A DNA stretch of 64,000 nt from contig OX597830.1 in assembly GCA_951406725.2 (NCBI GenBank), forward strand, positions 52,452,001 to 52,516,000. The letters are read 5' to 3'. This document shows positions 1 through 53,647 of this stretch, in pieces. Both the position numbers and the translations under genes were made by a program. Source of the stretch: Octopus vulgaris. Lineage: Eukaryota. Below the pieces are notes generated by a model. It was given only the letters and a program-made list of their open reading frames with translations. It had not been told where the DNA came from and did not search any database. Numbering within the stretch: position 1 is the stretch's first letter; each line of letters begins with the position of its first letter.

Positions 1-347
1 AGAAGGATATAAAGTTAAGTCATCTTCAGCAGGGTTTGAACACAGAATGCAAAGAGCCGGAACGAATACTGCAGGATATCTGTGTCCAACATTCTAGAGT
101 CTACCAGTCGACCTCCCCAACGTTGCTATGGCAACATGGTGCAGATATCATTGTCAAAGTATCTCTAACATTTAATTGCCTTCTCTTTGTTTTCTGTTTT
201 TTTGTGTTGTCTTTTTATTGATCTGTTGTCTCTTGATTGGAAGTCAACATGGCTCATGCGAAATAACCACCGTTTCGATCAAATATTTTCGTTGTGTCTG
301 TGATAGACATCACAAAGTGTTCAATTAATATCTTGCTTTCCATTCTG

Positions 348-24424: not shown

Positions 24425-24930
24425 GTGGTCTACTGGTAGTCTCAACACTGGAGATGGCAGGGAGATTTCTCCCTGCTAGCAATATAGACAAAAGTGCATT
24501 TTGCTCCAAAAACCAATATGAGAGTTTTTCTCATTGTATCTACTACAGTATAGTTTGTCCTAACAGAACATCCATGTTTAAGTGGGGTTAAATATTATCT
24601 TTTGGTATTAATACTGCCTCTGTCGTTAATATATATTTTTTAACAAACTCACTAGCTAATTGCAATACCAGTGCCTGTTCTGGCACTGTTATTTTATGTC
24701 ACTGGTGGGGAGATGAGCATCCATCACCGACGAGATCAAGGAAGGGCGAAATCACATGATCTGGTGGTCTTAATACTGGAGATAGCAGGAGTTTATCTCC
24801 TTGCTAGTGATATTAGCAGGAGCACATTTTGTATCAAAAACCAATATGAGAATTTTTTTTCATGGTATCTACCACAGTATAGTTTGTCCTGATAGAACAT
24901 CCACGTTTAAGGGAGGATAAATATTACCTC
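24425..24930. repeat. Diverged ~170-bp direct duplication
   Basis: 24432-24600 aligns with 24760-24929 (caaaaaccaatatgaga, acagtatagtttgtcct, agaacatcca). Confidence 0.85.
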
Positions 24931-52579: not shown

Positions 52580-53075
52580 TCATCATCATCATTTTTAGCA
52601 TCTGCTTTCTGTGCTGGCATAATTTAGACAGTTTGACTGGAGCTGGTAAGTCAGAGACTTGCACCAGGCTCCAGTGATTTGTTTTGGCTTGTTTCTATGG
52701 CTGGATGCTCTTCCCAATGCCAACCACTTTACACAGTCTACTGAGTGCTTTTTACGTGTCACTAGCATGAGTACCCTATGTCACTGGTGCAGGTGCTTTC
52801 TATGTGTCACTGGCACAGGTGCCCTTTCAATTGTATCACTAGCACAAGTGCCTTTTAAATGTCAATGGCTCAGGGGCCCTGTACATGTCACTGGCACTGG
52901 TGCCTTTTATGTATCACCAGCACAGTTCCTTTTCATGTGGCACTGGTACAGGTACCTTTTTAAACATATTACTGGCATGAGATCCTTCTACATGTCACCA
53001 GCACAGGTGCCTTTTACATGTCACCAGCACAGGTACCTTTTATATGTCATTGGCACAAGTTCCTTCTACATGTTA
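52580..53075 (-). mobile_element. RTE-family 3' UTR with ~25-bp minisatellite array
   Basis: Repeated atgtcactggcacaggtgcctttt units at 52755-53072. Confidence 0.8.
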
Positions 53076-53083
53076 CACACACT

Positions 53084-53122
<39 letters not shown>

Positions 53123-53194
53123 CTTGTTATGGGATCAGTGGTAGCCTGCCACTTCTGTTTATATATTGTGAGTAGGGATGATTGACTGCCATAT

Positions 53195-53268
53195 CTAGCA
53201 GGCAGGTGTCCAGTACCGATAAAGGGTAAAGACCCAGAAACTATGGTCTACTGGTCTTGCCAAGCTGG
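53195..53268 (+). ncRNA. Type-I hammerhead ribozyme-like motif (core mutated) in a retrozyme-like rod
   Basis: Stem I ccagta/tactgg (extended by ggcagg/cttgcc and ctagc/gctgg); core CCGATAA for CUGAUGA; stem II gggt-aaag-accc; GAAAC-tatg-GTC. Confidence 0.7.
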
Positions 53269-53647
53269 AGGGTAGTGATTTGCTCCCTTACTCACAATAT
53301 ATCGGACACAGCTTGCATGCCGTTGACCAGCTGGAAAAGACATTTTCCTGAGGTTAAAATGTAGTAACACGGTTCTTTATAGAACAGCCATGTTATAATG
53401 GCAAAAAAAAAAGCATTACCGCCTATATATATATATATATATATAAGGGAAACCGGGGCACAGTAGTCCCTTTCTTAGACCTGAAACATTGTACCTCAGT
53501 TTACAATTCATTCTACTAAGCTTTGACATTTTCACCCCAACATGTGTTTCAAATTAACAATGTAGATCTTGCTGTATTTTTTTCTTTTATGTAGAATTAA
53601 CAGGATACAGAATAAGGGTTGGGATTAGGTTTCATAGAAATCAATAC

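Follow-up and report, generated by a model that had tools for sequence, protein, structure and literature searches.

Non-LTR retrozymes have been reported from corals, mussels, and axolotl, with mussel families of 350–390 bp and axolotl families of 330 and 350 bp (Cervera and de la Pena 2020, PMC7229834). According to that paper, they are noncoding tandem units of 150–450 bp carrying one type I hammerhead each, with a 6-bp stem I followed by an internal loop, a short palindromic stem III, a GC content below 50%, and a highly self-paired unit. All of these features are shared by the octopus families analyzed here, and the axolotl hammerhead HHR_Amex2 is, like theirs, mismatched at its stem II base. 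Retrozymes have been argued to derive from Penelope-like elements (PLEs) in a preprint whose available text contains no mention of octopus or mollusc (Li, Clavereau, and Pollet 2026). The hammerheads of PLE pseudo-LTRs (pLTRs), described in 2014 by Cervera and de la Pena (PMC4209133), have in common with the present ones a palindromic stem III and an extra nucleotide after A9, whereas our units lack an ORF and combine a 6-bp stem I with a 3–4-bp stem II; minimal PLE hammerheads have a long stem II, unlike the present units. The core variant described for pLTR hammerheads is U3-A8, and the present variant is C4. PLE insertions display partial tandems, an inverted 5′-truncated copy, a 30–40-bp tail at one end, and a bias for (TA)n (Craig et al. 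2021, PMC8557442), and this signature is likewise shared.

A known counterpart of the present core is a viroid hammerhead with a U4C change in its uridine turn that is compatible with propagation in vivo (Ambros and Flores 1998, cited in PMC3088659). U4C is rare in the viroid; here several families of the genome have it in fixed form, and motif matches exceed the control by about 4,000. Compared with the retrozymes of PMC7229834, the present family differs in its master C4, and its circles are a prediction. Nor does the main text of that paper mention the insertion architecture described below (arms placed head to head, 3′ ends at fixed positions, (TA)n as the target): it contains no match for "inverted" or "microsatellite". 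Among the matches listed from the literature searched, cephalopod hammerheads figure once, in the paper on the giant squid genome, which counts 235 Rfam matches; cephalopod retrozymes and genomic families with U4C are absent from those matches. As far as we found, the kind of element is already known, an animal retrozyme, and what is new is a recurrent natural U4C core in spreading families, U4C having appeared in the literature searched only as the rare viroid variant.

The window copy and its 352-bp family

A sequence-only reading of the window, the whole 64,000-nt stretch of the Octopus vulgaris genome analyzed here, had proposed a decayed retrozyme copy in which a type I hammerhead lies inside a rod-shaped RNA fold. 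The arms, stems, core, and GTC that it quoted are each found at their coordinates (Table 1). The rod and the hammerhead topology were also upheld: the 153-nt stretch has a + strand folding energy of −66.6 kcal/mol (z −6.78, 0/200 shuffles equally stable), the − strand fold is weaker (−50.8 kcal/mol, z −4.64), and the stems covary across families. The rod island itself was recognized correctly, and the span assigned to it, 53156..53308, proved too short, the real extent being that of the truncated unit in Table 1. In the minimum-energy fold, which is the rod, the core is partly paired into an extended stem I, and the open three-way junction of the window copy is an alternative fold.

Table 1. 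Features of the window copy (window positions; unit positions are numbered from the cleavage site)
Feature	Position	Strand	Remarks
Left (TA)n run, target site	53085..53118	.	period 2, 17 copies
Right (TA)n run	53424..53445	.	
352-bp retrozyme unit copy, 5′-truncated, 0.88 unit	53116..53424	+	unit positions 218..173
Outer rod arms, mutually paired	53161..53178 / 53284..53302	+	
Distal stem I arms	53195..53206 with 53256-53268	+	sub-arms 53195-53199/53264-53268 and 53201-53206/53256-53261; internal loop before proximal stem I
Hammerhead stem I, 5′ strand	53210..53215	+	6/6 pairs vary on both sides (20 rows)
Hammerhead stem I, 3′ strand	53249..53254	+	pairs with 53210-53215
Core C3-C4-G5-A6-U7-A8-A9 (CCGATAA)	53216..53222	+	C4 = 53217 (family master state, as reconstructed); A8 = 53221 (copy-level mutation)
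Stem II	53223..53236	+	53224-53227/53232-53235, unpaired A flanking each base side
GAAA, stem III, UH	53237..53248	+	GAAAC 53237-53241; GTC ends at 53248; predicted cleavage after 53248
Small hairpin GCCAU...UGGC	53386..53402	+	about 20 nt upstream of the short 3′ end

The expectation of a multicopy, retrozyme-type family with units of 150–400 bp was confirmed by a DNA search of the source genome (2.80 Gb, 227 contigs), which revealed a 352-bp unit and hundreds of candidate copies (676 first-look candidates, with 59 matches among the 40 scored). Thirty loci were aligned, picked for likeness to the window copy and so not a random sample. The unit is circularly permuted, the sequence downstream of one copy being the upstream sequence of another. 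Copies have differing starts and 85–94% identity to the majority, and many bear an inverted, head-to-head second arm. Tandem units had also been anticipated; copies of the window family comprise 0.8–1.8 units, and the arrays of sister families extend to 23. The majority unit has a GC content of 0.43, is flanked by (TA)n, and contains no coding ORF, LTR, PBS, or PPT, with PBS and PPT judged by the flanks alone. It also lacks the RT plus GIY-YIG ORF of an autonomous PLE. The 352-bp unit and its 353- and 360-bp sisters are each noncoding tandem units in the 150–450-bp range with one type I hammerhead. Folded as circles, the unit RNAs reach −112 to −133 kcal/mol (z −6 to −9, 62–67% paired, 60 simple shuffles each). 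When dimers of three units were folded, the full active fold was not dominant in any, an outcome that is expected of a thermodynamic model and that we count as no support.

For position 4, the tally used 54 different aligned pieces drawn from 29 loci, the window copy being excluded. Among the 36 pieces that span the core, position 4-5 reads CG in 19, TG in 8, CA in 8, and CT in 1, and the 12 other CpGs of the family read CG 212, TG 68, and CA 81 times. This symmetric, CpG-like decay at position 4-5 therefore points to C4 in the master: as reconstructed from the copies, U4>C is the master state of the window family and not decay. G8, by comparison, is kept in 31/36 pieces, and the A8 of the window copy is therefore a copy-level change. 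Of the two core lesions initially proposed, G8>A accordingly stands and U4>C does not, because the changes at position 4/5 match ordinary CpG decay. The remaining core positions are canonical in the family majority, which reads CCGAUGA and does not restore the CTGATGA to be sought in a consensus. Exact 21-mer matches comprise 11 with C4 and 3 with T4, and in 11 of the 35 pieces spanning the motif the core is intact and position 4 is a pyrimidine.

The window copy is about 89–91% identical to the family majority, and its 3′ terminus is the family's short 3′ end, unit position 173. Its stem III is a damaged form of the family palindrome ACCAUGGU (C>T at 53242), with a duplex energy of −6.6 kcal/mol versus −11.2 kcal/mol for the family sequence. 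The copy had been considered probably inactive, and we also predict inactivity, as G8A disrupts the C3-G8 pair; with its broken palindrome and no neighboring unit, it is predicted to be a dead relic. It appears reasonably probable that the island is a 5′-truncated, mutated copy of a 352-bp master with a C4 type I hammerhead and a palindromic stem III, which likely spread as a non-LTR retrozyme via Penelope-like machinery. The palindromic stem III, the Penelope-type insertion architecture, and the toggling between U and C at position 4 are points absent from the sequence-only reading.

Two further repeats were noted in the window. A degenerate 26-bp tandem array (10.8 copies, 52779-53065) lies directly left of the insertion and closes a common interspersed repeat. 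Positions 24558-24678 match the tail region of the retrozyme unit weakly (62%, E 7e-6) and are probably an older remnant from a related family.

Sister families and covariation

Related families of 350–360 bp (52–61% identity) keep the core while their stems covary. The genome's youngest sister, its most recently amplified family, consists of 360-bp units that are 98–100% identical (8 distinct among 99 from overlapping loci) and share 52% identity with the window family. Position 4 is C in 1,245/1,247 of its motif matches and T in 2, and a palindrome-based pattern returned 898 matches, mainly from this family, against 0 in the control. One of its insertions (L111:436-8761) spans 8.3 kb and comprises 15 + 8 near-identical 360-bp units arranged head to head, a large near-perfect palindrome from which dsRNA or a cruciform could form. 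A young family of 353-bp units has the canonical core (461 matches, with U4 in all 100 among the matches listed). The canonical CUGANGA/GAAA/UH core is thus found in U4 sister families and not in the window family (CCGAUGA). More generally, the genome is very hammerhead-rich, with canonical motifs in many families, most of which have a palindromic stem III.

Covariation was assessed in 20 hand-picked motifs (rows) from related families. Overall, 89.3% of cells are paired and 12/16 pairs vary on both sides, a score reached by 0/500 shuffles; kinship of the rows can by itself beat shuffles, and slid controls, which preserve relatedness, are 17–43% paired (max 42.8%). Variation on both sides, which had been looked for in stems I and II, was observed throughout stem I (Table 1), in three core pairs of stem II, and in 2/2 inner pairs of the stem III palindrome, and distal stem I covaries as well. 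The base position of stem II is unpaired in 16/20 rows, in U4 and C4 families alike, and it is the next three pairs that covary. The type I architecture, three stems with open ends in stem I, is thereby supported by covariation. A link in which position 4 and the final base of loop III would covary was considered and rejected, as it fails in L129, L138, and L141.

The suggested check with the Rfam model Hammerhead_1 gave no match for the C4 examples tested (the window copy, L038, L056, L129, and L125) or for L086 (U4, long stem II), and matched the U4 sister L106, from the young 353-bp family, at 32.2 bits, below the cut-off of 34. The missing match for the window copy and the two mismatches in its core would also fit a common hairpin repeat, such as a MITE, SINE fragment, or satellite, that resembles a hammerhead by chance. 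That explanation is refuted, with practically no credence left to it, by the covariation across families, by a canonical motif 18-fold above control, and by circular permutation without terminal inverted repeats. The many Rfam matches to miRNA families are TA/TG microsatellites.

Outside the 350-bp units, short pLTR-type families with a long stem II and a 4-bp stem I form a comparable pair (L125, L139, and L148 versus L085, L086, and L110), one family having C4 and its sister U4. The toggle is therefore not limited to 350-bp retrozymes. No parent elements of these short families were found.

Position 4 across the genome and activity of the C4 core

To our knowledge, U4 of the hammerhead is treated as invariant and is written into search descriptors. 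U4-based searches may miss thousands of motifs per genome. Counted genome-wide as pattern matches, with folds not checked one by one, the flanking pattern with U4 occurs 11,160 times versus 632 in the control (an 18-fold excess), that with C4, including its CpG-decay product, 5,591 versus 1,555 times, and that with A or G at 4 1,902 versus 1,644 times. The excess over control amounts to about 10,500 for U4, 4,000 for C4, and 260 for A/G4; part of the U4 count presumably represents decayed C4, and a few hundred C4 matches are perhaps decayed U4. Position 4 is pyrimidine-restricted across the genome.

C4 is found in distinct families, and one clade mixes U and C masters in near-identical subfamilies (CCG 58, CTG 38, CCA 3, and CAG 1 in the first 100 of 277 matches). 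The young C4 family departs from this clade on a 0.75-substitution branch, with its core intact and a different palindrome. On a tree of 34 of the 104 extracted motifs, position 4 requires 9 changes, at least 6 of them forced by well-supported branches, and its labels cluster no better than shuffles (46 and 65 of 500). Use of this tree to count C4 origins was rejected, as CpG decay in old copies inflates the changes and the label is unclustered.

Whether such a core can cut is informed by several reports. U4C considerably reduces activity in vitro, yet allows viroid infectivity (PMC3088659), and every single CUGA-turn change was low-activity when a type III hammerhead was subjected to deep mutational scanning (PMC9901934). 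In axolotl, a retrozyme mismatched at the stem II base shows weak cleavage when monomeric and cleaves better as a dimer (PMC7229834). Dimer-cutting hammerheads are marked by a palindromic stem III (PMC4209133, PMC6765202). The C4 motifs combine two weakening features, C4 itself and the unpaired stem II base. The C4 change likely slows self-cutting and may not stop it.

Array lengths bear on this question. Among the matches listed, arrays average 3.7 units (max 23) at 31 young C4 loci and 1.7 units (max 5) at 58 young U4 loci, a significant difference (Mann-Whitney p 0.0004) that compares one family with one. Longer C4 arrays fit slower cutting, no cutting, or unrelated causes alike. As expected of uncut templates, they would suit an alternative in which the C4 families are dead or nearly dead descendants of retrozymes, Penelope copying uncut multimers and the hammerhead shape being inherited or kept for RNA folding or enzyme recognition. 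T>C is the commonest change at a T, and drift could reach C first. The low activity of CUGA-turn mutants (PMC9901934) and the spread of Naiad PLEs without canonical hammerheads (PMC8557442) speak for loss of activity as well. However, stem I, the palindrome, and the rest of the core are intact or compensated even on the young 0.75-substitution branch, A or G at position 4 has nearly no excess and no family with either was seen, and U and C masters stand side by side in near-identical subfamilies. We consider dead C4 families unlikely. Residual selected activity in the C4 lineages is the reading that we favor with fair assurance, because the other core positions and compensated stems persist and A/G4 is nearly absent.

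A broader proposal is put forward tentatively, as one that may well not hold: a natural, functional "cytidine-turn", CCGANGA, would have become fixed on repeated, independent occasions in families of this genome that are actively spreading, retrozyme and Penelope-type alike, making up about one-quarter of its hammerhead motifs. Its tuned-down, slower cutting would leave longer concatemers, and, being invisible to CUGANGA, it would cause censuses to undercount. The C4 and U4 sister families constitute matched natural pairs for gauging how much catalysis retrozyme spread needs.

Insertion architecture and a probable Penelope-like machinery

Young insertions are located in (TA)n. Young C4 arms terminate at either of two fixed 3′ ends, unit positions 176 and 222, which lie 46 nt from each other, and in 5/5 two-armed young loci with mapped ends one arm ends at 176 and the other at 222; the young U4 family has the identical two 3′ ends. 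A head-to-head arrangement was observed at 18/31 young C4 loci and 15/58 young U4 loci among the matches listed, and a tail-to-tail arrangement at none of them. The units thus display the partial tandems, inverted arm, one-end tail, and microsatellite target of Penelope mobilization. With their tail, TA targets, constant 3′ ends, and arms arranged head to head, these young arrays record Penelope-type retrozyme insertion with unusual clarity; such insertion has hitherto been argued from co-occurrence and pLTR phylogeny. The small GCCAU...UGGC hairpin near the short 3′ end is retained in all three families compared and is a candidate recognition element for the mobilizing enzyme.

Under the retrozyme reading, tandem arrays would be transcribed; their hammerheads, acting as dimers and probably at a slow rate, would cut the transcripts to unit length, and the resulting RNAs would circularize. 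Copying into (TA)n sites would likely be performed by a Penelope-like RT with a GIY-YIG endonuclease, our putative mobilizer.

Intact 781-aa RT plus GIY-YIG ORFs are present in the genome, in copies that terminate in (TA)n with an optional tail. They belong to a young Penelope-like family (L174:2245-4587 (+) and L175-L181) whose ORF links RT and GIY-YIG through a CxxC linker and matches Pfam RVT_1 and GIY-YIG. Upstream of it, a distinct ORF (up to 479 aa) has no Pfam match, and the 3′ UTR of about 1 kb contains tandem subrepeats; the optional tail is 34 nt long. By its features, we tentatively take this family to be of clade Neptune. The tail of one active PLE family resembles the retrozyme tails without significance (shuffle p 0.43–0.53), and the best local PLE-tail matches fall within the tail region in all three related units.

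The shared insertion architecture and target, together with hammerhead variants at PLE 3′ ends (PMC4209133), would also fit a unit that is not an independent retrozyme and represents a 3′ end (pseudo-LTR) detached from an autonomous PLE. However, the unit is preceded by its own unit's end, not by coding sequence, and arrays reach 15 + 8 units. PLE-like coding fragments occur in 4/150 non-PLE loci, none of them shown to be continuous with a unit, and the 3′ regions of 25 PLEs (from 148 scored GIY-YIG loci among 6,136 candidates) gave no blastn match to the retrozyme units. A detached pseudo-LTR is largely refuted and, in our judgment, very improbable, in favor of an independent retrozyme.

Other PLE-related loci were examined alongside. 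A full-length PLE was sought between inverted hammerheads 4.4 kb apart (L105) and discarded, as no RT ORF lies there. One PLE family (L155, L157, L159, L160, and L167) carries, about 100 nt upstream of its 3′ end, a minimal hammerhead whose core is the U3-A8 variant (UUGAUAA ... GAAAC AUGU UA/UU). An AUAGUGG-like word occurs about 17–25 nt upstream of the 3′ end in older PLE copies, in L104 and L125, and at window positions 53395-53402, its carriers being older PLEs, one pLTR-type family, and the window-family majority.
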